This document shows, in pieces, positions 7,667-40,740 of a stretch of DNA of 54,588 nucleotides. The notes beneath the pieces were generated by a model. It ran no database searches and was not told the DNA's origin. It saw only the letters and a list, made by a program, of their open reading frames with translations. The stretch's first letter is position 1. The number at the start of each line of letters is the position of its first letter. This stretch comes from Gammaproteobacteria bacterium (GTDB lineage: Bacteria > Pseudomonadota > Gammaproteobacteria > SZUA-152). The translations under genes were made by a program, and so were the position numbers. The stretch covers positions 1-54,588 of the forward strand of contig JASFOJ010000014.1 of NCBI GenBank assembly GCA_050116575.1, given 5' to 3'.

Positions 7667-8947
7667 TTGCCTCTGAAATTTAGTTGGCCCGCAACCAACC
7701 GGTGGACTTTCCCGGCAAAAGCGATTACTTTACGCATGAATTCCCGGCCCGGGCAAGGCCACGCATCCATCGATCATGAGACTTTCAATAAAACCCCAAT
7801 CAATAACTTATGGTGCTTCGTGAATATCGTTCTCAATCCCACATCAACCGCCAAACAATCAAAAAGCCAGCTGCAGGCGCGTTTCGACAAGCTGCGGCAA
7901 CAACTGCTGAAACAACAAAAACTTAACCAAAAATTCCAGGAAGATCTGGACGAACTGGTGACAATATATCAAACCGAGCTGGCACAAATGGACAGCAAAC
8001 AGGTTGAGCCCCTGACCCGGCTTACCGAAAAACTGATCGATTTCATGGGCCGCAAGAGCCTGTCCAACTGGCACCGGGAAGAGCTGGGGGACTGGATCAT
8101 CGAGACCATCAGCCGCATCGGCCGGGTGGACCCCGAAACCGCCGATAAACTGCACCGCCGGGTACGCCAACTGGTGGCCAGTCAGATGGGCATGACCGAA
8201 GAAGAAATGGATGAAGAAGCGCAGCAATTTGCCGAGTCTATGAAAGAAGCGTTTGAATCCGTTGGAGAAACGGAATCATCGGGGGCGGGCGCCGACTTCG
8301 ATGACGACGATCCTCAGGAGGATATGTTCGGCTTCGACGATGTCTTCGAGGATTGGGACGTGGATGACGATTTTGCCGAAAACAATGACCCTTTTGGTGG
8401 CAAAGCCCCGGACACCGATGAACGCCGCCGGCGGCTCATGGATGGTTCATGGGCACGCACGTTATTCCGGCGCGCCGCCCAGGCCCTGCACCCGGACCGC
8501 GAACAGGACCCCGAACAACGCCAGGCCAAGGAACGCTCCATGCAGCAACTGCTCGAAGCTCGCAACCAGGGTGACATCCTGACCCTGTTGCATCTGTACA
8601 GCGAGGGCGCTGGTGTCGACGACCTGGTGCTGGCCGAACAGGAAATGAAAAGCGCCTGTCAATTAATGGAGGAACAACTGAATGACTTACGTAATGAACA
8701 GTCCGATTTCATTTACGACCACCCACTGCGAATGCTGGTCCACGACCTGTTCTACAGCAGTTCGCGCAAAACCCGCGAGAAAAATATCCACTTATGGAAA
8801 CAAGACCTGAAAGCCGAGGCACAACTAACATCGGAGCTCGTGGGCGAACTGCGCAACCTCAAGGTGCTGAAGGAAATCCTGGAGGAACGCCGCGAGGAAC
8901 GGTATTTTCGTGACTTTGAAGAGATGTTTGACGGCCTGTGGAAATAA
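7667..8947 (+). CDS. J-domain (HPD motif) containing protein with coiled-coil and acidic tract; start uncertain
   Basis: The segment LFRRAAQALHPDREQDPEQRQAKERSMQQLLEARNQGDILTLLHL resembles a DnaJ J-domain helix II-III with HPD; a long D/E-rich stretch is present. Confidence 0.45.
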   Translation: MPLKFSWPATNRWTFPAKAITLRMNSRPGQGHASIDHETFNKTPINNLWCFVNIVLNPTSTAKQSKSQLQARFDKLRQQLLKQQKLNQKFQEDLDELVTIYQTELAQMDSKQVEPLTRLTEKLIDFMGRKSLSNWHREELGDWIIETISRIGRVDPETADKLHRRVRQLVASQMGMTEEEMDEEAQQFAESMKEAFESVGETESSGAGADFDDDDPQEDMFGFDDVFEDWDVDDDFAENNDPFGGKAPDTDERRRRLMDGSWARTLFRRAAQALHPDREQDPEQRQAKERSMQQLLEARNQGDILTLLHLYSEGAGVDDLVLAEQEMKSACQLMEEQLNDLRNEQSDFIYDHPLRMLVHDLFYSSSRKTREKNIHLWKQDLKAEAQLTSELVGELRNLKVLKEILEERREERYFRDFEEMFDGLWK

Positions 8948-9271: not shown

Positions 9272-10264
9272 ATGTACGATACCACCATAAAACCCCGCCG
9301 ATATTTTTTGATAATTGTACTTCTTATTGCCCTGAGCGGCTGCGGTGGTGGCGGTTCATCGGGCGGTAACAGCGTACCTGATGGCCTGTCGGACTACATC
9401 GGCACGTGGGTGGCAAACTGCACCACCGATTGGCCGACTCATGTTTTCACCCTGTCCATCAATGACTCGGGGCAATATTTTCTTATCAGCAATGAATATG
9501 ATTCCGCGGCCAATTGCGGCAACGATGCCAATCTGTTGAACACCAACATTGATACCGCCACGGTCACTTCCATTGAAACCAATGCCAATAACGCGTCATA
9601 CAAGGATATTTATCTGTCCGTGATCGAGACGCGCAAAACACCCCAATCTTCCAGCGAAGCATCGGACTGGATATCACAGGAATATTGCGGCCAGACCCTC
9701 TGGTTGCCGGGTATGGAGGCAACATTTAATGCCAGTAATACCGGCAGCGCCACCAGTATCTGTTATCAACCAAATTTGCGCCCCGCGGCTCTGCTCAATG
9801 GATCAACACTTTCCATAAACGGTCGCGGTAGTTTCGACGGCGGCGACCCGCCCGATGTGGTGTACAGCAAACAGGCCAGCCTGCCACTGCTGTCCGGCGT
9901 CATCGATGATTCACCGTGGGTGATGGTTTCCGGGAAAGCGAGTCCCGATTTTGGAGCAGGTAGTCTTAGCTACTCTATGTATGACACCTATGTACCCGAT
10001 ACTGATATTTGCAACGGCTTTTTTGGCGGTCGCGATAAAGTATTGGCCGTACTGCCTGACACCGGCGGCAATTTCACACTGAATCTGGGCACTTACAGCG
10101 TCACTCTATTCGATGTAGGGAATAACGATAACTACATCATTCTATCGGGATCGGGCACCCTGCAAAATGTTACCAGCACCGAGGTCAGCGGCAACATGAG
10201 CATGAGCTATGATGGCAACAACCATGTCAGCGGGCAGTTTACTGTATCACGTTGTTCAAATTGA
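9272..10264 (+). CDS. Putative lipoprotein (hypothetical)
   Basis: Signal peptide with lipobox LSGC followed by a Gly/Ser linker; no recognisable domain. Confidence 0.6.
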   Translation: MYDTTIKPRRYFLIIVLLIALSGCGGGGSSGGNSVPDGLSDYIGTWVANCTTDWPTHVFTLSINDSGQYFLISNEYDSAANCGNDANLLNTNIDTATVTSIETNANNASYKDIYLSVIETRKTPQSSSEASDWISQEYCGQTLWLPGMEATFNASNTGSATSICYQPNLRPAALLNGSTLSINGRGSFDGGDPPDVVYSKQASLPLLSGVIDDSPWVMVSGKASPDFGAGSLSYSMYDTYVPDTDICNGFFGGRDKVLAVLPDTGGNFTLNLGTYSVTLFDVGNNDNYIILSGSGTLQNVTSTEVSGNMSMSYDGNNHVSGQFTVSRCSN

Positions 10265-18913: not shown

Positions 18914-19284
18914 GGTGGTATTGCTCCCAAGGCGTTGTGCGATGTCTAAGGTGGCTACGCAGTTTGTTCGTTGATTTTATGCCCTGCATGGGGCTCTGCT
19001 TTTTATGTATTATGCTATGTAAAACTATTCATTGCCATGACAAGGGGCGATTAAACATTAACCAATGTTGCACCCCGTGTCTGTTGCACGGCATGTGTCT
19101 ATTAGCAAATCAATGAGTTATCGGCGGCGCCATTGATGTCAAACCGACCCTGTCACTGACCCGGCGCTCCCGGCAATTGCAGATGACAGACCGCCGATGA
19201 TTTGCGATCATTTCTCGGGACGCCTGTCCTGCACCGGGACACGGCAACGCCACCGATATAATAAAAAGATAACAAGGAGCCAGG

Positions 19285-29130: not shown

Positions 29131-29571
29131 TTACTCTTGACCGGGGTGTACTTTACGACGTTGCGCCTTACGTTCACTGTTCCGACGTTTTTGTTCCAGG
29201 CGGTCATTATTCTCCGCAAATGAACGTTTTCGTTTCAGCCGAGGCTTGCGGCGCTCTGCGGCTTTACAAATCAACTCGCACAGACGCTCGATCACTTCAC
29301 GCTTATTGCGTGCCTGTGACCGATGACGTCGTGCGGTAATAACAAGTTGGTAGTCGTTGTTGACCCGTGATCCGCCCAACTGAATCAAACGCTGTTGCAC
29401 GGTATACGGCAATGAGGGAGATTGAATAATATCAAAACGCAATTGGACAGCCGTCTGGTTCTTATTGACGTGCTGGCCACCCGGGCCGGATGCGGTCAGG
29501 GCCTTAAAGTTCAGCTCCTCATCGTCGATCACGATGGAATCGGTAACGTGTACGGGGTTTCCCATGTTCAT
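29131..29571 (-). CDS. arfB: Peptidyl-tRNA hydrolase ArfB (alternative ribosome rescue factor B)
   Basis: A GGQ motif (SGPGGQHVNKNQTAVQLRFDI) and a basic C-terminal tail; ~140-aa size typical of ArfB/YaeJ. Confidence 0.8.
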   Translation of the reverse strand: MNMGNPVHVTDSIVIDDEELNFKALTASGPGGQHVNKNQTAVQLRFDIIQSPSLPYTVQQRLIQLGGSRVNNDYQLVITARRHRSQARNKREVIERLCELICKAAERRKPRLKRKRSFAENNDRLEQKRRNSERKAQRRKVHPGQE

Positions 29572-29661: not shown

Positions 29662-30858
29662 TTAACCTTTGACACACACGATTTGTTTCAACGTGTGCAC
29701 CACGTCCACCAGATCGCTCTGGTTTTCCATGACCACATCGATATCCTTATAAGCGGCCGGTATTTCATCCACCACGGCGGTGTCCTTGCGGCATTCAATC
29801 CCTTGCGTTTGGGATTCCATGTCTTCGGCACTAAATTGCTTTCTCGCTTTGGTTCGGCTCATACGGCGGCCGGCGCCATGAGAGCAGGAACAAAACGACT
29901 GGGCATTGCCTTTACCGCGGACGATATAGGATTTCGCACCCATGCTACCGGGAATTATCCCTAACTCACCCTCTCCCGCTCGGATCGCCCCTTTACGGGT
30001 CACGAACACTTGGGCGTCAAAGTGATTCTCAATCGCCACGTAGTTGTGATGACAATTGATCGCTTCCTTGGTCACGCCAAAGTGGTTCAATTCCTTGCGC
30101 AGCATCTCAAAAATGAAGTGCATCATTTCCCGGCGGTTAACCATGGCATAGTCCTGCGCCCAGTGCACTGCATCAACGTAATCATCAAAATTCTGGGCGC
30201 CTTCCTCGAAATAGGCCAGGTCTTTGTCCGGCAAGTTCACGATATGCTGGCGCATATCTTTTTTCGCCAGATCGATAAAGTAACGACCGATGGCGTTCCC
30301 AATCCCACGGCTACCGGAATGCAACATCACCCACACATCCTGATTTTCGTCCAGACACAACTCGATGAAGTGGTTACCACCACCCAATGTCGCGATCTGG
30401 CGCACCCAGGTTTGATAGGGCTTCTTTTGTAAATTGGCAATCTTGGGGTGTTTGTCCAAAATCTTATCCAATCCCGGCGCCAGGCCACGAATAGTGGAAT
30501 TACGCGCCCTGTCGGTTTTATGCATGTCAAACCCCACGGGTATGGTTTTCTCGATCAGCGATCGAATACGGCGCAAGTTGTCCGGCAACTGCTCTGCCTT
30601 GATGGACAGGCGCACCGCGTTCATGCCGCAACCAATATCCACGCCCACCGCCGCAGGGATAACTACCCCTTTGGTAGGAATTACCGAGCCCACCGTGGCC
30701 CCAATGCCGGCATGCACGTCGGGCATCGCCGCGATATGGCTATGAATAAATGGCAATTGAGCAATGTTCGTCAATTGCTGCATGGCCTGGTGTTCCACAT
30801 CATCCGTATAAATTTTTACCGGCACCTTGCCTTTAGTAATGTTTCGTTTTATGGGCAT
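29662..30858 (-). CDS. rtcB: RNA-splicing ligase RtcB
   Basis: GNHFIELC...SCSHGAGR and metal-binding His/Cys motifs of RtcB; 398 aa. Confidence 0.93.
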   Translation of the reverse strand: MPIKRNITKGKVPVKIYTDDVEHQAMQQLTNIAQLPFIHSHIAAMPDVHAGIGATVGSVIPTKGVVIPAAVGVDIGCGMNAVRLSIKAEQLPDNLRRIRSLIEKTIPVGFDMHKTDRARNSTIRGLAPGLDKILDKHPKIANLQKKPYQTWVRQIATLGGGNHFIELCLDENQDVWVMLHSGSRGIGNAIGRYFIDLAKKDMRQHIVNLPDKDLAYFEEGAQNFDDYVDAVHWAQDYAMVNRREMMHFIFEMLRKELNHFGVTKEAINCHHNYVAIENHFDAQVFVTRKGAIRAGEGELGIIPGSMGAKSYIVRGKGNAQSFCSCSHGAGRRMSRTKARKQFSAEDMESQTQGIECRKDTAVVDEIPAAYKDIDVVMENQSDLVDVVHTLKQIVCVKG

Positions 30859-30896
30859 CGCCCTGTCCTCGTCAATCAGTTAATTATTGCAGGCAT

Positions 30897-30934
30897 AAAA
30901 AAACCCTGGATAACGCTGTCAGCCAGGGTTTATG
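30897..30934 (-). terminator. Rho-independent terminator (CCCTGG…CCAGGG hairpin, A-run / T-run on both sides) between rtcA and rtcB
   Basis: aaaaaaaCCCTGGataacgctgtcagCCAGGGtttatg, seen directly in the sequence. Confidence 0.5.
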
Positions 30935-31139
30935 AGACTCTACCATGGAAGACAACGTCGACATGCCTTCCACGCAAAGAGAAAGACATTGTTAATTTGT
31001 ATCGCGTTTTTGCCGTAACACTTGAGCTTTCTCCTTGAGTAACTGTTAAATTGAAATCGTGCCGCAATTGTAGCGCAGTGATTCAGAATGTCAACGACCG
31101 CTTGTCTGTTGAATTAGTACGCTCAAACCAGAGCAGTGT

Positions 31140-32174
31140 TTAACTTGCAACTTTTATACTAAAGCAATTTTCATTTAATTCGCTGAGCCGGTAATTGATA
31201 TCGAGAAACTGTTTCACCGTTCTGATATTGGTTTCAGTGTGTTGCGTTAGCTGACATGTCACAAACTCTCCGCCACCCGCCAAGCCCATGGGCAACAACA
31301 GCTGATCAGCGAGGTGCTCATCCACAGCAACGCCACTGTCAATGTAACGGCGTACTTCGTTTGCGACTTTTTTCGCAACGATTTCTGCTTTCACGCCTTT
31401 TTGACCATACCCTGTAAATACCTCGCTGATATTTTCACTTTCCACAGCAACTGAGACGACATTACCTGGCCCCAGCTCGGTTCCATAAGAGATAATGTCG
31501 AAATGATTGATCGATACGTTTAACTGACGCGCCAATACATTGATCTCGCGTTCAGCAATGTGTTTCGGTAATCCCACGATGTATACTGCTCCATGTATCG
31601 ACTGAATTTTCCCACGCTGCTTTAATGAGATAGCCTTTAATTTCCCGGTCGGTTGCACGTGCAACTCGAGACAACCACCGCCTTTTGGGAAAAATCCCGG
31701 CCGTATCAACGCTATTTCTATATCGCCCCCCATTTTATCCAGGATGGGTAAATACGCCTGTTGAATGAATTCAAATGGCGGGGCCATGGGATTGTGCGTG
31801 CCGCCTTCTATGGCGATCTTGCTGGGGCCATCGGCAAACAGCAAGGGCAGCATGATCGTCTGCAATACCAACGTTGTACTACCGGCGGTTCCGATCGAAA
31901 AGTGATACTCTCCAGGCTGTACATCATTCGGCTCGAAAACCAACTGTTGAGATCCCAAATGATCGCCTTCCACTCTGGCGTTACTGATACGCGCCGCTGC
32001 TCTAACCGCGGTTAAATGCCGGCGCAACAGCCCGGGCTTTTTCCGCCTGGCACGTATGTTTTCCATTCTGAATGGTTTTTTAAGGCAGACGGATATCGCT
32101 AATGATGAGCGCAATACCTGGCCACCCCCTTCGCCTTGTGAACCATCGATATAGACATGTCTTTGTTCGTTCAT
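31140..32174 (-). CDS. rtcA: RNA 3'-terminal phosphate cyclase RtcA
   Basis: N-terminal DGSQGEGGGQVLRSSLAISV... motif of RtcA; 344 aa. Confidence 0.9.
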   Translation of the reverse strand: MNEQRHVYIDGSQGEGGGQVLRSSLAISVCLKKPFRMENIRARRKKPGLLRRHLTAVRAAARISNARVEGDHLGSQQLVFEPNDVQPGEYHFSIGTAGSTTLVLQTIMLPLLFADGPSKIAIEGGTHNPMAPPFEFIQQAYLPILDKMGGDIEIALIRPGFFPKGGGCLELHVQPTGKLKAISLKQRGKIQSIHGAVYIVGLPKHIAEREINVLARQLNVSINHFDIISYGTELGPGNVVSVAVESENISEVFTGYGQKGVKAEIVAKKVANEVRRYIDSGVAVDEHLADQLLLPMGLAGGGEFVTCQLTQHTETNIRTVKQFLDINYRLSELNENCFSIKVAS

Positions 32175-32301
32175 TTCAATTTCTTTTGAATTTTCAGTAA
32201 GTAAATAGTCGCTTTCTACTGTTTAGCATAAATAGACGATATTTAAAAAGTCTCCCCCACTTCCCTTTCGTAAAGGGAAGCAATCGGGGAGAAACAATGG
32301 T

Positions 32302-33633
32302 TTAGTTAATTTTCACCAAACCATTCATCAGTCCTTCAAGGCCACCGAAAACAGACAAGTTACCGACTTTTTCAGTGACTTTTTCCAACGTTTCCAGCTC
32401 TTTCAAGCGTAGCGCCGTTGGGTTGTCTTCCATGACTTTGGCGGTGTTCAACATTGAACGTGTGGCCGCCGTTTCTTCGCGACGTCGAATGGAGTTCGCT
32501 TGTGCGGCTTTTTCAGCTTCGACCACTTGGGCCAGAATGGTTTTCATATCACCTGGCAGGATAATATCTTTCACACCTACATCAGCGATAGAAATACCGA
32601 CATCCGCGGTTTTGGCCTTGATGTGCGCCAACACGCTATCATCGATGACCGTTTTATCTTCAAGCAACGCATCCAACGTACGTGTACCCACGGCCGCGCG
32701 CAAACCAAATTGCAGTTCACGGCGCACGTAGTCGTTGACGTCAGCCAATTTTGACGTTGCCGCCATCACATCCGTGATGCGGTAGCTGCAAGACAAGTTG
32801 ATACGCAGGTTTACCTTGTCTTTGGTCAAAATTTCCTGACCGGCGACGTCCATGTCTTGTACACGAGTATCGAACAATTCAATACGGATATTACGATTGA
32901 ACTTCCAGTACGCGTGCAGACCTGGCGTCAATGTACCTGCCGTTGCACCATCCACGTACAGAACACCTACGTTGTATTCTGGCACATGACGGAAGTACAC
33001 GGCGTGGATCATGGAGTCACGCAACAGACCACGGTCGGCGAACACCAGTTCGGCTGCCAGCCGTGATTCGATGGCGAAGTCATCCGCGATATCGATTACT
33101 TTGGCCTCAACGTCCACCAGTCCTTTCCAGAACAGCGTGCGCGTTGATGGACCCAGCACGTAGGCCAGGCGGCGATTTTTGAAGATCAATGCCACTTGCG
33201 TTGCGTTCAATTCCACGATATCGAAGCGTTTTGCCACTTCGCCCGCAAATTGTTTGATCAACAGGTCGGTCAAGCGGTGCTCGAACTCCGGTACGCTCAG
33301 GTCAAAAACCTCCACGTCGATTTTACGCAGTGGATCCAGGAAGTGGTACGTACCCGCATCCAGGAAGCGTACAAAATCCCCGTTTTTAAACAGCAATCCG
33401 CGTTCATTTTTTTTCACTATAAATTTACGTACTACCAACATTGTCTTACTCCCATTGTCCCTGTTACCACTCACTGGTTGTTTCACGTTCACCGCCTTGT
33501 CAGCGCCTGAAATGCCCTTATTTGTTAAACTTGAGTTCACACGCACAGAAGCCGGTTTGCCTCGATGCCGCTGTGAAATAAGGGCGGCCGTTTCTCCGAT
33601 TGTGCGTTGTGTGTTCATCGTAGAGTCCTTCAC
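32302..33633 (-). CDS. SPFH/band-7 (stomatin/HflKC-like) domain protein
   Basis: SPFH core and a C-terminal coiled coil (EAEKAAQANSIRRREE...); the N-terminal start is uncertain. Confidence 0.75.
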   Translation of the reverse strand: MKDSTMNTQRTIGETAALISQRHRGKPASVRVNSSLTNKGISGADKAVNVKQPVSGNRDNGSKTMLVVRKFIVKKNERGLLFKNGDFVRFLDAGTYHFLDPLRKIDVEVFDLSVPEFEHRLTDLLIKQFAGEVAKRFDIVELNATQVALIFKNRRLAYVLGPSTRTLFWKGLVDVEAKVIDIADDFAIESRLAAELVFADRGLLRDSMIHAVYFRHVPEYNVGVLYVDGATAGTLTPGLHAYWKFNRNIRIELFDTRVQDMDVAGQEILTKDKVNLRINLSCSYRITDVMAATSKLADVNDYVRRELQFGLRAAVGTRTLDALLEDKTVIDDSVLAHIKAKTADVGISIADVGVKDIILPGDMKTILAQVVEAEKAAQANSIRRREETAATRSMLNTAKVMEDNPTALRLKELETLEKVTEKVGNLSVFGGLEGLMNGLVKIN

Positions 33634-34002
33634 GTTTTATATATCATACAATCTAGTTAGTGGTGTCACTTCCACACCATTGCAGCGGGTGATAATTTGC
33701 GAATCACCGGGTTTGATCGGAACGTGACGCCGCAGTATCCCGTAACCCGAATAACTTCAAGCTACTGTCAACGTTAGCGAAACGTTGCGAAAAAACCGGG
33801 TAAATCCGTACCCGTTATCACACAGGCCCAATGGTGCTGTGTGAGCAACAGCGGTTCGGCATCAACTGCCTGCCTATTTCGCTACTGTCACACCGGAAGT
33901 GACATCCGGTGGTTTGGTTTCCTCTCGTACTCCCAAGGTGTCTTTACCTAAGACCAAAGAGGGGACTCGAACCCCAGACCGTTAAAGGGTCTTTACCATA
34001 GT

Positions 34003-34075
34003 TGCTTAGACAGGATTTGAACCTGCTACCTCACGATTTTCCGTCGTGTGCTCTACCCAATGAGCTACAAAGCAC
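34003..34075 (-). pseudogene. tRNA-Phe-like gene (anticodon GAA but G33, acceptor-stem mismatch, no CCA)
   Basis: Cloverleaf derivable by eye: D-arm GCTCATTGGGTAGAGC, anticodon arm CACGA-CGGAAAA-TCGTG, T-arm GCAGGTTCAAATCCTGT. The defects suggest decay. Confidence 0.35.
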
Positions 34076-34342
34076 TGGTGTGAATAGCCTTCTCCATAAC
34101 GGTACACGTCAATCAATTTTCAGATCCAACGCGCCAGCCAGGTATACAGAACCATCGCCGCTGTTACAAGTAAGACGCATACTCACTCTGTAAAGGGTTT
34201 GTGTTTTTCTTTACACAATCCACTTAATTTCTTTAATGCTCCCTCCTTTTCAACCGAGGGTTGGGGGGGGTTATTACATTAATCCTAGAATCAAATCCCC
34301 CTTCATTCTCCATTTGTAAAACGGGAAGTACCTCACCATTAA

Positions 34343-34906
34343 TCAAATCCAACGACAGTGTTTCGTAAATCCGGCTTTCAAAAATTCCATTTGATCGGCC
34401 AGGATTCTGCCGCTGTTGCGCAATGCCAGATATTCGGCATGGTTCGGTGTATGCGGCAACGCCAACAACTGCAAATTGCATTCTTCCGGCAAACGATCGC
34501 CTTTGTAATGGTTGCATCGTTTGCAGGCTGCCACGACGTTGGTCCAGGTGTTTTTACCGTTCCGTGACCGTGGAATCACGTGATCACGGGTCAGCTGCTG
34601 AGCGTTAAACTCACGACCACAATACATACACAGATGTCGGTCACGTCGAAACAATTCCTGGTTGGTCAACGGTGGTACTGAGCGAACACGAATGGTTTTA
34701 TCCACGCCTTTCACTGCAACGATCGAATGGATATCCACAAACGAGCGTTGGCTGGTCACACGGTTGACACCACCGTGGAACCGAAAACGATGTTCGCCCG
34801 CCGTCCAACCGATACGCTCTTTGGCATACAACATCACGGCGTCTTGCCAATGCATCCAGCCCAACGGCTGACCCGCCATATCCAAACGCAAAATCAATGG
34901 AACCAC
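34343..34906 (-). CDS. HNH endonuclease (start GTG preceded by GAGGAG; ORF-track extension to 35050 runs into tRNA-Leu and is rejected)
   Basis: C-terminal CMYCGREFNAQQLTRDHVIPRSRNGKNTWTNVVAACKRCNHYKG HNH motif. Confidence 0.75.
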   Translation of the reverse strand: MVPLILRLDMAGQPLGWMHWQDAVMLYAKERIGWTAGEHRFRFHGGVNRVTSQRSFVDIHSIVAVKGVDKTIRVRSVPPLTNQELFRRDRHLCMYCGREFNAQQLTRDHVIPRSRNGKNTWTNVVAACKRCNHYKGDRLPEECNLQLLALPHTPNHAEYLALRNSGRILADQMEFLKAGFTKHCRWI

Positions 34907-34964
34907 GCTTTTCTCCTCATACTCTATCGATACCTTTAACAAGTTGGGAAGTACCATTATTAAT

Positions 34965-35050
34965 TGGTGTGCCCGGTCAGATTCGAACTGACATTGCCAT
35001 TTGGGCATAGGGTTTGAGCCTATTGTGTCGGCCAATTGCACCACGGGCAC
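34965..35050 (-). tRNA. tRNA-Leu(CAA)
   Basis: Acceptor GTGCCCG/CGGGCAC, anticodon arm ATAGG-CTCAAAC-CCTAT, long variable arm, T-arm with TTCGAAT, encoded CCA. Confidence 0.85.
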
Positions 35051-35248
35051 ATTTTGCGAATTGGCGGAAGAGATAGGGCGAGCAACGGGTTAAGGAGTCG
35101 CGAGCGCCAAGTCATGGATGACTTGGCTGGACTTTCGCGCGAAGCATGGATAGCGAAGCGCGAAAGCGAACCTATAAATCCCTACCAGGGATCCACTGGT
35201 TAGCAACCAGCTGCCTTGCCATTCAGCCACTCTTCCGACTTATCGATT

Positions 35249-35336
35249 TGGTGCGTGCGGAGGGATTGGAACCCTCATGCTCGAACGGAGCGGCGGATTT
35301 TAAATCCGCTGTGTTTGGCGGCTCCACCACGCACGC
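35249..35336 (-). tRNA. tRNA-Leu(UAA), D-loop lacks GG
   Basis: Acceptor GCGTGCG/CGCACGC, anticodon arm GCGGA-TTTAAAA-TCCGC, long variable arm, CCA end. Confidence 0.8.
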
Positions 35337-35356
35337 AGCACCTACATTTATGTATT

Positions 35357-35432
35357 TGGTTGTGACAATTGGAGTCGAACCAATATCTTCAAGGGTATGA
35401 GCCTTGCGCTTTGCCAGTTAAGCTATGTCACA
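35357..35432 (-). tRNA. tRNA-Met or Ile2 (anticodon CAU)
   Basis: Canonical cloverleaf; anticodon arm CAAGG-CTCATAC-CCTTG. Confidence 0.85.
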
Positions 35433-35445
35433 ACTTCTACAACAT

Positions 35446-35521
35446 TGGCACCCTTGGTAGGATTTAAACCCACATCTGTCGAGGTAGAAGCTCGATGCTT
35501 TGTTCATTAAGCTACAAGGGT
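35446..35521 (-). tRNA. tRNA-Arg(UCU)
   Basis: Anticodon arm TCGAG-CTTCTAC-CTCGA; canonical D and T arms. Confidence 0.85.
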
Positions 35522-35539
35522 GTAGTTAATCAATGTATT

Positions 35540-35615
35540 TGGTGCCCCCGGCAGGATTTTCGCCTGCAACCTACCGCTTAAAAGGCGATTGCTCTTGATG
35601 TTGAGCTACGAAGGC
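35540..35615 (-). tRNA. tRNA-Lys(UUU) with atypical T-loop CGAAAAT
   Basis: Anticodon arm ATCGC-CTTTTAA-GCGGT; acceptor with two G-U pairs; the T-loop lacks TTC. Confidence 0.75.
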
Positions 35616-35642
35616 AATATTTCTATTTTTAAAAGAATAAAT

Positions 35643-35717
35643 TGGAGGTGCGGGCCGGAATTGCACCGACGAAAAGTTGGTTTGCAACCAACTGCATTGC
35701 TACTCTGCCACCGCACC
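35643..35717 (-). tRNA. tRNA-Cys(GCA)
   Basis: Anticodon arm GTTGG-TTGCAAA-CCAAC, discriminator U, CCA. Confidence 0.8.
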
Positions 35718-35718
35718 G

Positions 35719-35865
35719 TGGCACCTCGAGCAGGAGTCGACAATTTTGTATGGAGCAAAATTGGTCGAACTTTAGTTCACCCGTAGGGCGCAAGCCATGG
35801 ACGGCTTGCGACAGCCCACACCCACTGTTTTGGAGGCAGTTGTTCTACCGTTAAACTATCGAGGC
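35719..35865 (-). ncRNA. Elongated tRNA-Trp(CCA)-like gene carrying the ~80-nt three-hairpin module (copy A) between 5' T-stem and T-loop
   Basis: The 5' half GCCTCGA-TA-GTTT-AACGGTA-GAAC-A-ACTGC-CTCCAAA-ACAGT closely parallels E. coli tRNA-Trp. It is followed by GTGGG, the module, GTCGACT-CCTGC, TCGAGGT-G-CCA. Confidence 0.55.
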
Positions 35866-35877
35866 ACAATCTTTTAT

Positions 35878-35952
35878 TGGTAGGGGATCCTGGACTTGAA
35901 CCAGAACTCTGAGCTTCAAAGACTCGTGTGCTGCCGATTACACCAATCCCCT
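35878..35952 (-). tRNA. tRNA-Gln(UUG)
   Basis: Anticodon loop CTTTGAA; acceptor AGGGGAT/ATCCCCT; CCA. Confidence 0.75.
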
Positions 35953-35967
35953 ATCGGTTATTAAACT

Positions 35968-36043
35968 TGGCACGCCCACCAGGACTTGAACCTGGATCTC
36001 TCACATTCGTAGTGTGAGGCTCTCGCCATTGAGCTATAGGCGT
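35968..36043 (-). tRNA. tRNA-Arg(ACG)
   Basis: Anticodon arm TCACA-CTACGAA-TGTGA; canonical. Confidence 0.85.
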
Positions 36044-36045
36044 TT

Positions 36046-36120
36046 TGGTTGACGTGGTCAGAATCGAACTGACAACCTTCTGTTTGTAAGACAGACGCTC
36101 AACCATTGAGCTACACGCCA
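36046..36120 (-). tRNA. tRNA-Val(UAC)
   Basis: Anticodon arm TCTGT-CTTACAA-ACAGA; canonical. Confidence 0.85.
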
Positions 36121-36138
36121 TTTGATTTGTATAAAACG

Positions 36139-36232
36139 TGGCGGAAGGTGGAGGGCACGATCCCCAAACGGTGTTTCACGTTCCACTGGTTTTCAAGACC
36201 AGGCCAACGCCCATCGCGTCAGGTTACCTTCC
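36139..36232 (-). tRNA. tRNA-Ser(UGA)-like, class II, degenerate T-arm
   Basis: Acceptor GGAAGGT/ACCTTCC, anticodon arm CTGGT-CTTGAAA-ACCAG, long variable arm; the T-loop is not canonical. Confidence 0.55.
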
Positions 36233-36301
36233 TTACCTGTTTTACATACGTTCGCAATATAGAATTGTTTTGTGATGTTGTTTGTTGCAGTCTTTTAGAT
36301 T

Positions 36302-36358
36302 ACGATTGACGACGCACTTTCACCAAAGCTGCTAGTTGTTTTTTGGATAATTTCATTG
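36302..36358 (-). CDS. Candidate 18-aa ORF MKLSKKQLAALVKVRRQS with strong SD (GAGGAGGG) inside the tRNA array
   Basis: RBS and ATG spacing seen in the sequence; no other support. Confidence 0.2.
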
Positions 36359-36375
36359 CATCGCCCTCCTCTATT

Positions 36376-36451
36376 TGGCACGCCCGGAAGGATTCAAACC
36401 TTCGACCCCTTGGTTCGAAGCCAAGTACTCTGTTCACTGAGCTACGGACGT
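36376..36451 (-). tRNA. tRNA-Arg(UCG)
   Basis: Anticodon arm CTTGG-CTTCGAA-CCAAG; canonical arms. Confidence 0.75.
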
Positions 36452-36465
36452 ATGTGGCATTAAAT

Positions 36466-36542
36466 TGGTAGCGCGGGTGAGATTCGAACTCACAACATCC
36501 AGTTTCTAAGACTGGCGCGTCTGCCCATTGCGCCACCGCGCC
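36466..36542 (-). tRNA. Class I tRNA with anticodon UAG (Leu codon CUA) but short variable arm
   Basis: Anticodon arm CCAGT-CTTAGAA-ACTGG, 5-nt variable loop, A73; bacterial tRNA-Leu is normally class II. Confidence 0.6.
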
Positions 36543-36561
36543 GCTATACGACAAATAAGTA

Positions 36562-36639
36562 TGGGGCGACCGACGAGGTTCGAACTCGTATCCTCTCGGT
36601 TCACAGCCGAGGACTTTAGCCGGTTAAGCTACGGCCGCC
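36562..36639 (-). tRNA. tRNA-His(GUG) with encoded G-1
   Basis: Extra 5' G pairing with C73; anticodon arm CTCGG-CTGTGAA-CCGAG. Confidence 0.85.
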
Positions 36640-36661
36640 ACTAATTAACTTACAAATAATT

Positions 36662-36754
36662 TGGAGCGGGTAATGAGACTTGCACTCATAACCTCAACGT
36701 TGGCAACGTTACGCTCTTCTCATTGCACCCTCCGGGCATAAAAGCTATACCCGC
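36662..36754 (-). tRNA. tRNA-Gly(GCC) with ~18-nt D-loop expansion (UUAUGCCCGGAGGGUGCAAU)
   Basis: Acceptor GCGGGTA/TACCCGC with U73; anticodon arm TAACG-TTGCCAA-CGTTG. Closely parallels E. coli tRNA-Gly(GCC) apart from the insertion and the TGCAAGT T-loop. Confidence 0.6.
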
Positions 36755-36761
36755 AGTAAAT

Positions 36762-36856
36762 TGGTCTGGACGACAGGCCGCTCTTGAGCATCCCTGCTCT
36801 GGCGGCACTTGTGCATCCAAGCACATCGGATTCGAACACGATCCATACAGTTTTGT
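36762..36856 (-). pseudogene. tRNA-Pro 3'-end relic (duplicate of the last ~20 nt of tRNA-Pro, T-arm missing)
   Basis: aattggtctggacgacagg nearly repeats aatttggtctgggcgacagg at 36858; the upstream part lacks T-arm and anticodon features. Confidence 0.4.
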
Positions 36857-36860
36857 AATT

Positions 36861-36939
36861 TGGTCTGGGCGACAGGATTTGAACCTATGGCCTCTCGGTT
36901 CCAAACCGAGTGCTCTGCACAGACTGAGCTACACCCAGA
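36861..36939 (-). tRNA. tRNA-Pro(UGG)
   Basis: Anticodon arm CTCGG-TTTGGAA-CCGAG; canonical. Confidence 0.85.
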
Positions 36940-37049
36940 AAGATCACCAACGATGCACGTTGGCGGCACAGCTGTTGTCCTGCAGTTGTGCTCCCACACC
37001 TTTTACGGCGGTGGTATACCGGCGACAGGGAGTGTCGCGCTCCTGCTAT

Positions 37050-37197
37050 TGGTTGCCCTATCAGATTCGACAATTCTGACGGGATCAGAATTGGCCGCGC
37101 TTTAGCGCGCCCGGCAGGGTACGGGCCATGGATGGCCCGTAACAGCTGATCACCGCACGATTATCAGTCGTGTGCTCTGCCACTGAGCTAAAGGGCA
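37050..37197 (-). ncRNA. Elongated tRNA-Ile(GAU)-like gene carrying module copy C
   Basis: The 5' half TGCCCTT-TA-GCTC-AGTGGCA-GAGC-A-CACGA-CTGATAA-TCGTG is canonical. T-stem ATCAG then the module then TTGTCGAAT-CTGAT then AGGGCA-A-CCA. Confidence 0.5.
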
Positions 37198-37365
37198 TTG
37201 GCGAACCGGACGGGGTTATTCCGCACATCCATGTGCTCCACCCTTTGGGCCGTCGCTTCGCGACGTTCAAATTTGCTCCCGGCAAATTTGTCGAACCCGC
37301 AATGTCATCTCGACACCAGGTTGAAGGCCTGGCCGCTTTGTCCACTTTGCATACCGGTTCATCGT

Positions 37366-37442
37366 TGGCGACCATGACCGGCAATGATCCGGCATCTTCC
37401 ACCTTGACAGGGTGGCGCTTTCCCAAGTTAAGCTACATGGCC
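37366..37442 (-). tRNA. tRNA-Asp(GUC) with atypical T-loop
   Basis: Anticodon arm CCACC-CTGTCAA-GGTGG; acceptor GGCCATG/CATGGTC; T-loop ATCATTG. Confidence 0.7.
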
Positions 37443-37449
37443 TTTAAAT

Positions 37450-37521
37450 TGGTGGAGTGATTCGGAATCGAACCGAACCCGATCGCTTGCAAGGCGTTCA
37501 GTGCGACCCATCGCCCACCCC
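37450..37521 (-). ncRNA. Short tRNA-like gene (anticodon UGC-like) with mini D-arm (GCGA-TGG-TCGC)
   Basis: Acceptor GGGGTGG/TCACTCC with G-U pairs, T-arm TTCGG-TTCGATT-CCGAA, CCA; the D-loop is only 3 nt. Confidence 0.4.
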
Positions 37522-37543
37522 GTATGAAACAAGTGCAATTAGT

Positions 37544-37629
37544 TGGCTGAGAAGGTCGGACTCGAACCGACATTGAGTTCTCACTCACGGGTTAACAGCC
37601 CGCTGCATTACCTGGTCTGCCACTTCTCA
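37544..37629 (-). tRNA. Class II (long variable arm) tRNA with anticodon GUU (Asn codons)
   Basis: Acceptor TGAGAAG/CTTCTCA, D-stem GCA/TGC, anticodon arm GCGGG-CTGTTAA-CCCGT, 15-nt variable arm GAGTGAGAACTCAAT, T-arm GTCGG-TTCGAGT-CCGAC. Confidence 0.6.
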
Positions 37630-37637
37630 TTATCATT

Positions 37638-37714
37638 TGGTGCAGCGAAATGGATTCGAACCACTATCGCCCTGGGCTTCAACCAGGCGCTCTACCCATT
37701 GGAGCTATCGCTGC
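37638..37714 (-). tRNA. tRNA-Phe(GAA)
   Basis: Anticodon arm CCTGG-TTGAAGC-CCAGG; canonical D and T arms. Confidence 0.85.
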
Positions 37715-37720
37715 GAAATT

Positions 37721-37982
37721 TGGTGGAGCACGGAAGGCCGCTCTCGCAGATCCCTCGGCTATGGCTCCTGCTTCGCCCTACCTCCTGCATCCATGCAGTC
37801 GTGTGCTTCGCGGCACCTGTGCATCCATGCACAATGGAATCGACAATTTTGTCCGGAACAAAATTGGTCGAACTTTAGTTCGCCCGTAGGGCGCGAGCCA
37901 GGGATGGCTCGCGACAGCCTCTTGCCCGAAGGGCCTGGGCTACAACCAGGCCGTGGACCATCCACGCTTATTGACATGCTCC
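37721..37982 (-). ncRNA. Long tRNA-like RNA with Tyr-type anticodon arm (GUA), mini D-arm, module copy B and two GCATGGATGCA hairpins before a CCA end
   Basis: GGCCTGG-TTGTAGC-CCAGGCC anticodon arm, GTGGA-TGG-TCCAC mini D-arm, the module at 37840-37919, 3' CCGTGCTCCACCA; boundaries are uncertain. Confidence 0.4.
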
Positions 37983-37994
37983 AATACGCTTTTG

Positions 37995-38160
37995 TGGTTT
38001 ACTAAGGTCGGTTTCACCCCACCGACTCCCGAATCCGGTTTTTCAACCGTCGAACCGACTTTACTTACCCTTGCACACCCAGGCAGAAATGAATGGAGTA
38101 ACAACGGGTTTCGGTTACAACCTGGTGCTGCCACACCACTTAGTAAACCCAAAAACATAC
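37995..38160 (-). ncRNA. Structured RNA closed by 11-bp terminal helix (GGTTTACTAAG / CTTAGTAAACC) with CCA after the helix; tRNA-like acceptor
   Basis: Inverted repeat between 37996-38007 and 38136-38147, seen directly; the internal fold is unresolved. Confidence 0.3.
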
Positions 38161-38175
38161 GCACTAAAAAACAAT

Positions 38176-38269
38176 TGGTGCCGAAAGTAGGACTTGCACC
38201 CACAACCGTCTGCTTACAAGGCAGCTGCTCTGCTAAATTGCACCCAAAGGGCATAAAAGCTATTTCGGC
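38176..38269 (-). tRNA. tRNA-Thr(UGU)-like with the same D-loop expansion as the Gly(GCC) gene
   Basis: Acceptor GCCGAAA/TTTCGGC, D-loop TTATGCCCTTTGGGTGCAATTTAGCA, anticodon arm GCTGC-CTTGTAA-GCAGA, T-loop TGCAAGT. Confidence 0.55.
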
Positions 38270-38271
38270 AC

Positions 38272-38366
38272 TGGTTGTCCCGGCAGGACTTGAACCTACA
38301 ACTCGCGCTAATCTGGCGCTTTCCCAAGGTATAAGCTTGGCGTTTTACCAATTAAACTACGGGACA
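38272..38366 (-). tRNA. Class II tRNA with anticodon UAU (Ile AUA codon)
   Basis: Acceptor TGTCCCG/CGGGACA, D-arm GTTT-AATTGGTA-AAAC, anticodon arm CCAAG-CTTATAC-CTTGG, ~24-nt variable arm with GCGC stem. Confidence 0.55.
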
Positions 38367-38385
38367 CCTAATCATGTGCAGCCTC

Positions 38386-38559
38386 TTATGCCAGTTCTCT
38401 GGCCAACGCAAACGCTGCATCAAAGTTTCGATGTATTCGGTTCTGTATTGCGCCGTTACGTAAAAACCATCGCACGTTAGGCTGGCTGAAGGATTTCCTA
38501 GCCGCCGGCAGATTCATGGTTTTAATGAGGCGCTCATAGCGTTGCGCTTTCGTGTACAT
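38386..38559 (-). CDS. Candidate 57-aa ORF (MYTKAQRYERLIKTMNLPAARKSF...) with strong SD GGAGGTGA
   Basis: RBS and ATG at the edge of the tRNA array; no homology recognised. Confidence 0.3.
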   Translation of the reverse strand: MYTKAQRYERLIKTMNLPAARKSFSQPNVRWFLRNGAIQNRIHRNFDAAFALARELA

Positions 38560-38606
38560 AACACTCACCTCCTTTTCAATACGACCTGTTCCACATCAGC
38601 AAAAAT

Positions 38607-38755
38607 TGGTGCGGGCAGACAGAGTCGACAATTCTGACAGGATCAGAAATGGTCGCACTTTAGCGCGCCCGATAGGGTGCGGGCCATGGATGGCCCGCAA
38701 CAACTGTCATCTTCTGCTTGGAAAGCAGGTGTTCTACCATTGGACTATGCGCGCA
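38607..38755 (-). ncRNA. Elongated tRNA-Gly(UCC)-like gene carrying module copy D
   Basis: 5' TGCGCGC-ATA-GTCC-AATGGTA-GAAC-A-CCTGC-TTTCCAA-GCAGA, then the module, then TTGTCGACTCTGTC-TGCCCGC-A-CCA. Confidence 0.5.
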
Positions 38756-40612: not shown

Positions 40613-40740
40613 TAATTGGGCAAGTAGCTCAGCGGTAGAGCACCGGGCTTATTTACTCTTCGCTTCTCGCACCAAGAGTTCCTAATTGATCTAACCCGGA
40701 GGTCGCAGGTTCGACTCCTGCCTTCCCTGCCCGTTTTTCG
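40613..40740 (+). ncRNA. tRNA-like gene interrupted by ~46-nt insertion in the anticodon loop; no encoded CCA
   Basis: GGGCAAG-TA-GCTC-AGCGGTA-GAGC-A-CCGGG-CTT[insert with ACTCTT/AAGAGT hairpin]CTAA-CCCGG-AGGTC-GCAGG-TTCGACT-CCTGC-CTTCCCT; the 3' end is followed by a GCCCG-TTTTT-CGGGGC hairpin. Confidence 0.45.

Follow-up and report, generated by a model that had tools for sequence, protein, structure and literature searches.

Short imperfect palindromes with conserved arms and a variable loop are typical of several groups of small genomic repeats, among them the repetitive extragenic palindromic (REP) and bacterial interspersed mosaic elements (BIME), the Rickettsia palindromic elements and the double-hairpin elements of fungal mitochondria. 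REP-type repeats are present or absent at conserved sites, and Rickettsia palindromic elements lie inside functional genes. Small hairpin-forming inserts are also known from archaeal tRNA genes, where non-canonical introns of the bulge-helix-bulge type, 11–30 nt long, occupy positions in the D-arm and T-arm; in Thermoproteales, introns undergo 'transposition' between tRNA genes, and near-identical inserts are found in different tRNAs. In bacteria, the only interruptions of tRNA genes known to us are group I introns located in the anticodon loop; these introns have at least 200 nt and a catalytic core (P3–P9), and often come with HNH-type homing endonucleases. Here we describe a 54,588-nt stretch of DNA from a gammaproteobacterium of the SZUA-152 lineage (contig JASFOJ010000014.1, assembly GCA_050116575.1; the whole stretch is referred to below as the window), in which two genes of an accessory tRNA array, tRNA-Gly(GCC) and tRNA-Thr(UGU), carry closely similar 17-nt palindromic inserts in the D-arm. 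The insert most closely resembles REP-like palindromic elements. It shares with them the imperfect palindrome, the conserved arms around a variable loop and the presence or absence at conserved sites, and the same hairpin is embedded in REPs of the GTAG type on two other contigs (L135 and L100); like the Rickettsia elements, it would lie inside functional genes at a position that may be structurally permissive. It differs from REP-type repeats in having only two copies in the window, in lacking GTAG or RAYT nearby and in being located inside tRNA genes rather than between genes. At 17–18 nt it is, to our knowledge, several-fold shorter than any described mobile unit.

Both genes are on the minus strand and both encode CCA: tRNA-Gly(GCC) at 36662..36754 (93 nt, U73; read by eye) and tRNA-Thr(UGU) at 38176..38269 (94 nt, A73). 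The Gly gene, 36754->36662, reads GCGGGTA TA GCTT TTATGCCCGGAGGGTGCAATGAGAA GAGC G TAACG TTGCCAA CGTTG AGGTT ATGAG TGCAAGT CTCAT TACCCGC T CCA, and the Thr gene, 38269->38176, reads GCCGAAA TA GCTT TTATGCCCTTTGGGTGCAATTTAGCA GAGC A GCTGC CTTGTAA GCAGA CGGTT GTGGG TGCAAGT CCTAC TTTCGGC A CCA. Minus-strand reading and pairwise alignment bore out the basic observation of an earlier, sequence-only reading: the genes differ in acceptor and anticodon (GCC, UGU), and share the segment TTATGCCC-NNN-GGGTGCAAT together with the T-loop UGCAAGU. In the alignment the blocks ATAGCTTTTATGCCC and GGGTGCAAT are identical and only the 3-nt spacer between them differs (GGA in Gly, TTT in Thr). The motif of 17 specified bases, TTATGCCCNNNGGGTGCAAT, occurs exactly twice in the 54.6 kb, even with three mismatches allowed (0.19 expected).

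The sequence-only reading had described an insertion of ~18 nt in the D-loop. A discrete insertion is indeed present, but its length is 17 nt and it is placed between nt 12 and 13, at the border of D-stem and D-loop. The site is identical in both genes (AGCT|TTTATGCCC-NNN-GGGTG|CAAT), and the insert reads TTTATGCCCGGAGGGTG in tRNA-Gly (36726..36742, minus strand) and TTTATGCCCTTTGGGTG in tRNA-Thr (38241..38257, minus strand). Its arms can form a 5-bp stem, UGCCC/GGGUG, that includes two G.U pairs; if C13-A14-A15 of the tRNA are drawn in, the stem can reach eight pairing positions, UUAUGCCC/GGGUGCAA. Between the two copies, every one of the three loop bases is different and the other 14 bases are identical, a pattern with a chance of 1/680 if the differences were random.

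Arrays related to the one in the window were collected from other metagenomes via homologs of its HNH and slipin genes. They are L065, L067 and L069 (HNH 78%, 83% and 83% to the window, respectively), L149, which is of the same type as L069, and L150 and L151 (slipin 81% and 87%). Their gene order is that of the window, and four array types have both genes in unchanged order but lack the segment. In these arrays Thr(UGU) and Gly(GCC) have 75–77 nt (colinear alignments with L069 and L150; gene alignments with L067, L069, L150 and L151), and the uninserted D-arm DNA is TAGCTCAAT. The alignments contain one clean 17-nt gap at the same position, both in Thr (AGCT|TTTATGCCCTTTGGGTG|CAAT, against L067, L069, L149, L150 and L151) and in Gly (AGCT|TTTATGCCCGGAGGGTG|CAAT, against L069:5121-5196, L150:6706-6781 and L151:2067-2141). 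Because the related arrays carry both genes without the segment, it is a clean 17-nt insertion specific to this lineage and cannot be put down to a variable arm or to misalignment. It had been asked whether correct realignment might turn the shared segment into an ordinary variable region, and the clean gap answers this in the negative. A class II long variable arm was likewise ruled out: the variable region has only 5 nt (AGGUU in Gly, CGGUU in Thr) and the additional nucleotides precede the anticodon arm on its 5′ side.

The same orthologs decide between the two origins that had been suggested. Each gene has its own uninserted ortholog, which rules out descent of both from one insert-bearing ancestor whose anticodon was changed afterwards. 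Outside the insert the Thr gene is identical to L069:4040-4116 at 76 of 77 positions; the Gly gene has its acceptor stem, U73, anticodon arm and arm architecture in common with the Gly genes of L150 and L151. A close match to E. coli tRNA-Gly(GCC) had also been claimed; U73 is present, but the closeness is unsupported, as the insert-free gene was unmatched by BLAST in 5,426 E. coli genomes. An assembly artefact is unlikely as far as can be checked. In exact look-ups of window proteins, the helix-turn-helix (HTH) and 204-aa HNH proteins were found on short contigs plus a contig matching in array length only, and RtcA and the 187-aa HNH protein had no record. On an independent contig of 14.6 kb (JGI 3300042731), the encoded HTH and HNH proteins are identical to those of the window and the HTH-to-HNH spacing is 4733 vs 4732 nt, which reproduces the total array length by spacing alone.

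Because the same hairpin sits in REP-type repeats outside tRNA genes, we read the insert as a small palindromic DNA element. Elsewhere the module has the form TTTATGCCC-N3-4-GGGTR, 17–18 nt, directly after GCT or CCT. In ~0.9 Mb of non-array loci fetched for other reasons, TTTTATGCCC-N3-4-GGGT has three independent copies versus ~0.01 expected. L135 contains a plain REP, GTCGGCAAACGCTTCGCT|ATGCCGACCTAC (also given as ...CGCTTCGCT|ATGCCGACCTAC), and two filled copies, ...GCT|TTTATGCCCTTTAGGGTA|ATGCCGACCTAC and ...GCT|TTTATGCCCCGTGGGTA|ATGCCGACCTAC, with loops TTTA and CGT and the arm GGGTA; the L135 REPs sit in gaps between open reading frames (ORFs). In L100 the module follows CCT, inside a REP with different arms. 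The module-hosting REPs of both loci, which are unrelated gammaproteobacterial contigs, are flanked by GTAG/CTAC; no GTAG signature was found beside the tRNA copies of the module. A third setting is a ~75-nt repeat in Desulfobulbales metagenome-assembled genomes, which carries ...TCTGCT|TTTATGCCCTTTAGGGTG|CAAACG...; tandem units without those 18 nt exist, and the indel is not perfectly clean. The Desulfobulbales repeat itself (TAAAGCTGAGTTGAGCAGCTTGTCTGCTTTTATGCCCTTTAGGGTGCAAACGAAACTTATGCCCTGTGGGTATAAA, ~75 nt; L003-L064) is present in dozens of copies per genome, some of them with a further 50-nt insert.

The loops vary among the REP and Desulfobulbales copies too (TTTA, CGT, TTCA and others). 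Thus two features of miniature palindromic elements, a palindrome with conserved arms and variable loop and presence or absence at orthologous or paralogous sites, are both found, the latter in tRNA genes, in the REPs of L135 and in the Desulfobulbales repeat units. On the best reading of these sequences, the insert would be a member of a tiny palindromic insertion family with three unrelated backgrounds. Spread of a module between tRNA backbones, the other origin proposed at the outset, fits in that a discrete module occupies two backbones, but the module is not tRNA-specific, as the hairpin inside REP-type repeats demonstrates. A scan for the exact motif, suggested together with that proposal, returned 62 loci in genome contigs (596 Gb), namely 59 of one Desulfobulbales repeat family and three chance-like singles, and no match in viral contigs or in metagenome contigs; none of the three scans found another tRNA with this insert. 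A search of plasmids with the REP query gave nothing useful. Within the window, an intergenic hairpin at 18972-19000 (plus strand), TTTTATGCCC-TGCAT-GGGGC followed by a T-run, may be a diverged third copy or a terminator. Templated copying of GGGTGCAA from the Thr T-arm was considered as a source of the insert and rejected, since the insert supplies only five of the eight bases.

We favor an explanation, with a probability of roughly 0.55, in which a 17-nt palindromic DNA module was inserted in two accessory tRNA genes and has been retained as a tolerated extra stem-loop of the D-arm. In appearance the insert is closer to selfish DNA that the tRNA tolerates than to an inherited part of the tRNA. 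The self-complementary module, TTTATGCCC-loop-GGGTG, would have entered both genes at the DNA level after G10-C11-U12 ('...AGCT|CAAT...'), either twice, from palindromic-repeat copies with different loops, or once, followed by transfer or copying between the identical ATAGCT/CAAT flanks. After transcription it would most likely be kept as an additional stem-loop of 5–8 bp on the D-arm near the tRNA elbow, with the first inserted U taking the place of C13 opposite G22. The insertion would spare the acceptor, anticodon and T arms as well as the CCA end, the identity nucleotides and the elbow contacts A18-G19/G55-C56. The outcome would be a 93–94-nt tRNA with a tolerated 'expansion segment', accessory to the housekeeping set and probably still functional. 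With presence and absence in tRNA genes, in REPs and in one more repeat family, a 17–18-nt module would be smaller than any insertion unit described so far, and it prompts a search for the enzyme that moves it.

The cloverleaf is intact around the insert. Both genes have a 7-bp acceptor stem followed by the discriminator and CCA (GCGGGTA/TACCCGC-T-CCA in Gly, GCCGAAA/TTTCGGC-A-CCA in Thr), and both have a 5-bp anticodon stem and a 7-nt loop with U33 and a purine at 37 (UAACG-UUGCCAA-CGUUG in Gly; GCUGC-CUUGUAA-GCAGA in Thr, with one mismatch, G27.A43). The T-stem of 5 bp is intact in both, and the T-loop reads U-G-C-A-A-G-U with G55, a variant found together with A18 in eight array tRNAs. A standard 4-bp D-stem with a 7–11-nt D-loop containing G18 G19 is absent from both genes: the D-loop has 25–26 nt if U13'.G22 closes the stem, and A18-G19 replaces G18-G19. 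In E. coli, the identity elements of tRNA-Gly are U73, the first acceptor pairs and C35 C36, and those of tRNA-Thr are acceptor pairs and G35 U36; we take these to be left untouched by the insert in both window genes. The folding check proposed for the two genes came out unevenly. The minimum-free-energy fold of Thr is the cloverleaf plus the extra hairpin; for Gly all four cloverleaf helices can be drawn, but a non-tRNA fold is preferred. Departures from the 76-nt cloverleaf compatible with function are known among non-canonical tRNAs, such as tRNA-Sec with its long D-stem, tRNAs with class II variable arms and allo-tRNAs with extra loops, and mobile elements can encode irregular tRNAs in polycistrons (Krahn et al. 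2020, PMC7609411). None of the tRNAs covered by that review has a hairpin inserted in the D-stem/D-loop.

Several observations weigh against a tolerated mobile module. ARAGORN calls neither gene, and the scores against Rfam RF00005, 25.6 bits for Gly and 22.3 bits for Thr, do not reach the gathering score of 29. The Gly cloverleaf plus hairpin, at -21 to -22 kcal/mol, is ~10 kcal/mol worse than the alternative, where the insert forms pairs with the acceptor strands. C13 is displaced by the insert, and A14 and A15 may be sequestered. On the DNA side, only two copies of the module and a doubtful one (18976) are found in the 54.6 kb, and within this stretch it is not a high-copy repeat. The number of independent matches in the genome-wide scan is about that expected by chance (~4), and for this reason the Desulfobulbales match alone is weak evidence. 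No RAYT, Y1 or other transposase is encoded among the ~30 window ORFs scanned with Pfam, and we know of no enzyme or mechanism for moving 17-nt units.

The failure of ARAGORN and the low Rfam scores are also what speaks for an inactivating insertion, a possible but clearly less probable explanation, by which the hairpin killed two dispensable array genes that are now young pseudogenes with no RNA-level role. The insert breaks the 5′ strand of the D-stem, the minimum-free-energy fold of Gly is not a cloverleaf, and arrays of this kind are accessory: according to the paper on the Anabaena L-array, 3 of its 26 array genes have no detectable tRNA (PMC8421152). However, the two genes give no sign of decay. 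Thr is identical to its ortholog at all positions but one, although the neighboring HNH gene has 44% third-position differences, and Gly retains every helix by way of compensatory double changes. Compared with its orthologs in L150 and L069, Gly shows mostly double, pair-preserving changes, including C-G or U.G to G-C at 31-39, G-C to A-U at 49-65 and C-G to U-A at 50-64. Moreover, the hairpin arms of the two inserts are identical and the loops saturated with differences. Between the window and L069, identity is 56% at third codon positions of HNH, 84% in non-tRNA array DNA and 90% in tRNA exons, and the insert-bearing genes have 1–14 differences versus 1–20 for other array genes. By these comparisons the tRNA exons are not decaying, and the divergence of insert-bearing genes does not exceed that of the rest. 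Should the insertions be of very recent date, however, these arguments would not be decisive.

Removal of the insert in silico gives an exact canonical tRNA of 76–77 nt, equal to the uninserted orthologs. This speaks for an intron-like explanation, which we consider improbable, in which the 17 nt and larger T-loop modules described below are cut out and the halves sealed by the adjacent RtcB, as a bacterial counterpart of archaeal splicing at tRNA positions that are non-canonical. Similarly, removing the 73–74-nt T1 module restores a 7-nt T-loop. RtcA and RtcB are encoded downstream in the same orientation; both arrays with large modules, the window and L150, have RtcA plus RtcB, whereas, among the arrays that lack the modules, L069 encodes just RtcB, and in L065 neither gene lies in the flank that was fetched. 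The insert also resembles archaeal introns in size, type of position and recurrence in different tRNAs. It differs in that the host is a bacterium, that no bulge-helix-bulge could be drawn by hand at either junction, that no splicing endonuclease domain was found by Pfam among the ~30 window ORFs and that the module is found outside tRNAs as well, in repeats where splicing would be senseless. In addition, Rfam gives no intron or ribozyme match even at E<=10, 17 nt is too short to be catalytic, and RtcB is tied to L-arrays generally, insert-free ones such as L069 included (for L-arrays at large, PMC8421152). Were the inserts removed nonetheless, this would amount to a new bacterial RNA processing pathway.

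Three more specific candidates were rejected. A bulge-helix-bulge consists of two 3-nt bulges bearing the splice sites, 4 bp apart; both mirror arrangements were tried by hand on ...AUAGCU|UUUAUGCCCNNNGGGUG|CAAU..., and no 4-bp central helix is possible. A group I intron resembles the insert only as an insertion in a tRNA gene near HNH; the insert has 17 nt, lies in the D-arm and has no Rfam Intron_gpI match at E<=5 to 10. Finally, RtcB does not mark insert-bearing arrays, as L069 has RtcB and no inserts.

All insertions in the array fall at the tRNA elbow (D-arm 12/13; T-loop 54/55 and after 57–58). Together with the conserved arms and free loops of the hairpin, this could indicate selection for an expanded tRNA, in our view a very unlikely explanation, in which the hairpin is kept for changing how the tRNA acts and yields decoy or specialized tRNAs. 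Such an effect might be achieved by blocking elbow contacts with the ribosome, RNase P or toxins, or by a second UGCAA T-loop-like motif docking on the UGCAA T-loop. Insert and flank together form GGGUGCAA, identical to GGGUGCAA in the T-arm of the same Thr gene, and a possible role of array tRNAs as sponges of toxin RNases is suggested in the L-array paper (PMC8421152). On the other hand, the insert is missing from all four related array types, the REP hairpins have another 3′ flank, so that UGCAA is partly a by-product of the tRNA flank, and no covariation was seen in only two copies. If the inserts are indeed retained, they would provide a gauge of how much extra RNA is tolerated at the elbow, and they may mark tRNAs with non-translational roles in a stress-induced array.

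The unusual T-loop, at 36678..36684 in Gly and 38192..38198 in Thr (minus strand), had been grouped with the shared segment as part of one module. Thr, Gly, Cys and Gln genes that lack the insert have it as well; the variant is independent of the insert. Among uninserted genes, UGCAAGU is found in Thr of L067, L069 and L151 and in Gly of L150, and UGCAAAU in Gly of L151; Gly of L069 and Thr of L150 have ordinary UUCGA T-loops (GGTTCGA in DNA). In both inserted genes G55 replaces U55 and goes together with A18-G19 of the D-loop, which is kept downstream of the insert. Among ARAGORN-called array tRNAs, all eight genes whose T-loop is UGCAA (Thr, Gly, Cys, Gln) have UAG and no GG in the D-loop, whereas the large majority, 77 genes, combine a UUCGA or UUCAA T-loop with GG. 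The variant occurs in the window at 38192-38198, 36678-36684 and 35643-35717 (Cys), and in Thr, Gly, Cys and Gln of L069, L150, L151 and L065. The pattern looks like covariation of an elbow contact, with G18/U55 replaced by A18/G55 and G19-C56 kept, in at least eight array tRNAs.

The 17-nt insert is not the only kind of insertion in the array. Alignment of the window with L069 defines at least eight further structured insertions of 73–175 nt, one family of which is strongly covarying. This family, T1, lies between T-loop nt 54 and 55 of Gly(UCC) (38629-38702; 73–74 nt), Tyr (37844-37916), Ile(GAU) (37071-37144) and Trp (35741-35813), all on the minus strand. It has a four-hairpin fold, and 14 of its 32 pairs show double compensatory changes among six copies. 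The second type, T2, lies 3′ of T-loop nt 57–58 in Glu (37216-37290) and Ser(GCU) (35079-35166), and Tyr has a second, T2-type insert (37738-37837). The Pro(UGG) gene is followed by a 98-nt 3′ extension (36762-36859, minus strand) ending in a second CGTCCAGACCA. The end of this extension is a second acceptor 3′ strand plus CCA, which could pair with the 5′ strand of Pro; it is missing in L069 and L150.

T1 is missing from L065, L067, L069 and L151. Because L150 has the Glu and Ser inserts in common with the window but carries T1 in other genes, Val(UAC) and one further gene (L150:7439-7512, 9281-9353), the presence of the modules varies between genes and between lineages; their positions in the tRNA are the same throughout. 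T2 inserts form hairpins with AUGGAU-type (AYGGAY) loops, and further examples are found at L150:6340-6413, 7014-7087 and 8410-8496, L109:4207-4277, and L142:9808-9863 and 9954-10014. Free-standing T2 relatives occur near HNH genes in non-array loci. The core of the Tyr T2 insert is present in 2–5 intergenic copies per Pseudoalteromonas chromid and inside the pglX ORF of two enterobacterial plasmids, from Moellerella and Salmonella (L155, L156). No intron, ribozyme or other Rfam family covers the inserts at the gathering threshold or at E<=5 to 10, T1 corresponds to no Rfam family, and a T1-derived pattern had no matches in viral contigs. The only Rfam signal is a weak TwoAYGGAY match (19 bits, E=5.7), on a T1 hairpin. 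The loops of T1 hairpin 1 (AUCCAU, AUCCCU, GUCCAU) exactly complement T2 loops (AUGGAU, AGGGAU), and in tRNA-Tyr the partners AUCCCU and AGGGAU are found within one gene. From this complementarity, T1 and T2 may engage in loop–loop (kissing) contacts, or one hairpin-binding factor may act on both DNA strands.

All array inserts map to the tRNA elbow, and structured elbow insertions in many tRNAs of one array are a more remarkable result than the 17-nt insert itself. Precise hairpin insertions in the D-arm, together with T-loop insertions in neighboring genes and exons that are still conserved, contrast with the expectation of group I introns only. A more speculative scenario, which we regard as unlikely, is that accessory tRNA arrays are colonized by several families of small structured modules homing to conserved elbow positions (12/13, 54/55 and after 57–58), the 17-nt hairpin being the minimal member, and that the modules are either kept as expansion segments or removed by novel splicing that uses RtcA and RtcB. 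If true, and if the modules are kept, they could confer new tRNA properties, such as contacts between complementary loops of different modules, or serve as decoys for tRNA-targeting toxins.

One mark of an L-array is that the operon is silent and induced by translational stress. Others are visible in the window itself, where more than 20 co-oriented tRNA genes are linked to HNH, RtcB and slipin genes. The host array comprises ~30 tRNA or tRNA-like genes with encoded CCA at 34001..38754 (minus strand), as delimited by ARAGORN, Rfam, a scan for acceptor plus CCA, and colinear alignment with L069 and L150. An HNH_5 endonuclease gene (34343..34906, minus strand; Pfam PF14279, PF01844), with orthologs of 78–85% identity in related arrays, lies inside it. 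Downstream is a block identified by Pfam (29662..33633), in which slipin/SPFH (32302-33633) directly follows the array, and RtcA (31140-32174) and RtcB (29662-30858) come next, all on the minus strand. An RF-1-domain (ArfB-like) protein is encoded after RtcB both in the window (29131-29571, same strand as the array) and in L150, and a divergent HTH regulator gene is located upstream of the array. The window is chromosomal DNA, with genes for FeoB, iPGM, a PIF1-type helicase and others. The set of trn operon, HNH, slipin and RtcB is that of the Anabaena L-array and the TrcR translational-stress regulon (PMC8421152; PMC10272220). The window resembles that array in its ~30 co-oriented, CCA-encoding accessory tRNAs and in the HNH, RtcB and slipin genes, and differs in that the gene set is physically clustered and the host is a gammaproteobacterium. 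Term searches of the L-array paper for insertions in D-loops or T-loops gave no result (PMC8421152). BLAST searches with the array returned nothing in phages and only generic tRNA matches in plasmids, and ~76 loci with more distant HNH homologs (~55–60% identical; L070-L148) contain no tRNA arrays. Non-array HNH_5 homologs in L066 (6682-8600, 11885-12301) lie beside genes for a KptA/Tpt1 2′-phosphotransferase, EF-Tu and an RF-1-domain protein.

The array and its surroundings hold several other irregular features. Two small ORFs with strong Shine–Dalgarno sequences lie inside the array on the minus strand (38386-38568 and ~36300-36356), encoding 60 aa and MKLSKKQLAALVKVRRQS, respectively, and are kept in L069 and L150. 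Between Thr and Tyr there is a conserved RNA of ~152 nt (37995-38146, minus strand), with orthologs at L069:4138-4296, L065:7762-7925 and L151:225-390 and none in L150. It is tRNA-like: A-CCA follows a terminal helix of 11 bp, and a GGUG/CACC hairpin resembles a D-arm. It shows some covariation and has no Rfam match. An 86-nt class-II-shaped tRNA (37544-37629, minus strand; L150:5989-6074) combines a long variable arm and a Ser/Tyr-like D-arm with the Asn anticodon GUU; it stands in for the ordinary 75-nt tRNA-Asn of L069, L065 and L151, a possible mismatch of identity and anticodon. Only 2 nt from the Thr gene, a tRNA-Ile(UAU) of 94–95 nt (38272-38366, minus strand) has a long variable arm and is kept in L065, L067, L069 and L151. 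The tRNA at 36139-36232 (94 nt, minus strand; anticodon UGA, Ser) has an irregular D-arm; it is kept in L069 and L150, and scores 33.3 bits against Rfam tRNA-Sec, under the threshold of 47. Outside the array, next to a 621-aa ORF without a Pfam match, a 112-nt tRNA (40618-40729, plus strand; Rfam 57 bits) has a C.C mismatch in the acceptor stem and ~40 extra nt in the anticodon loop with an ACTCTT/AAGAGT hairpin.

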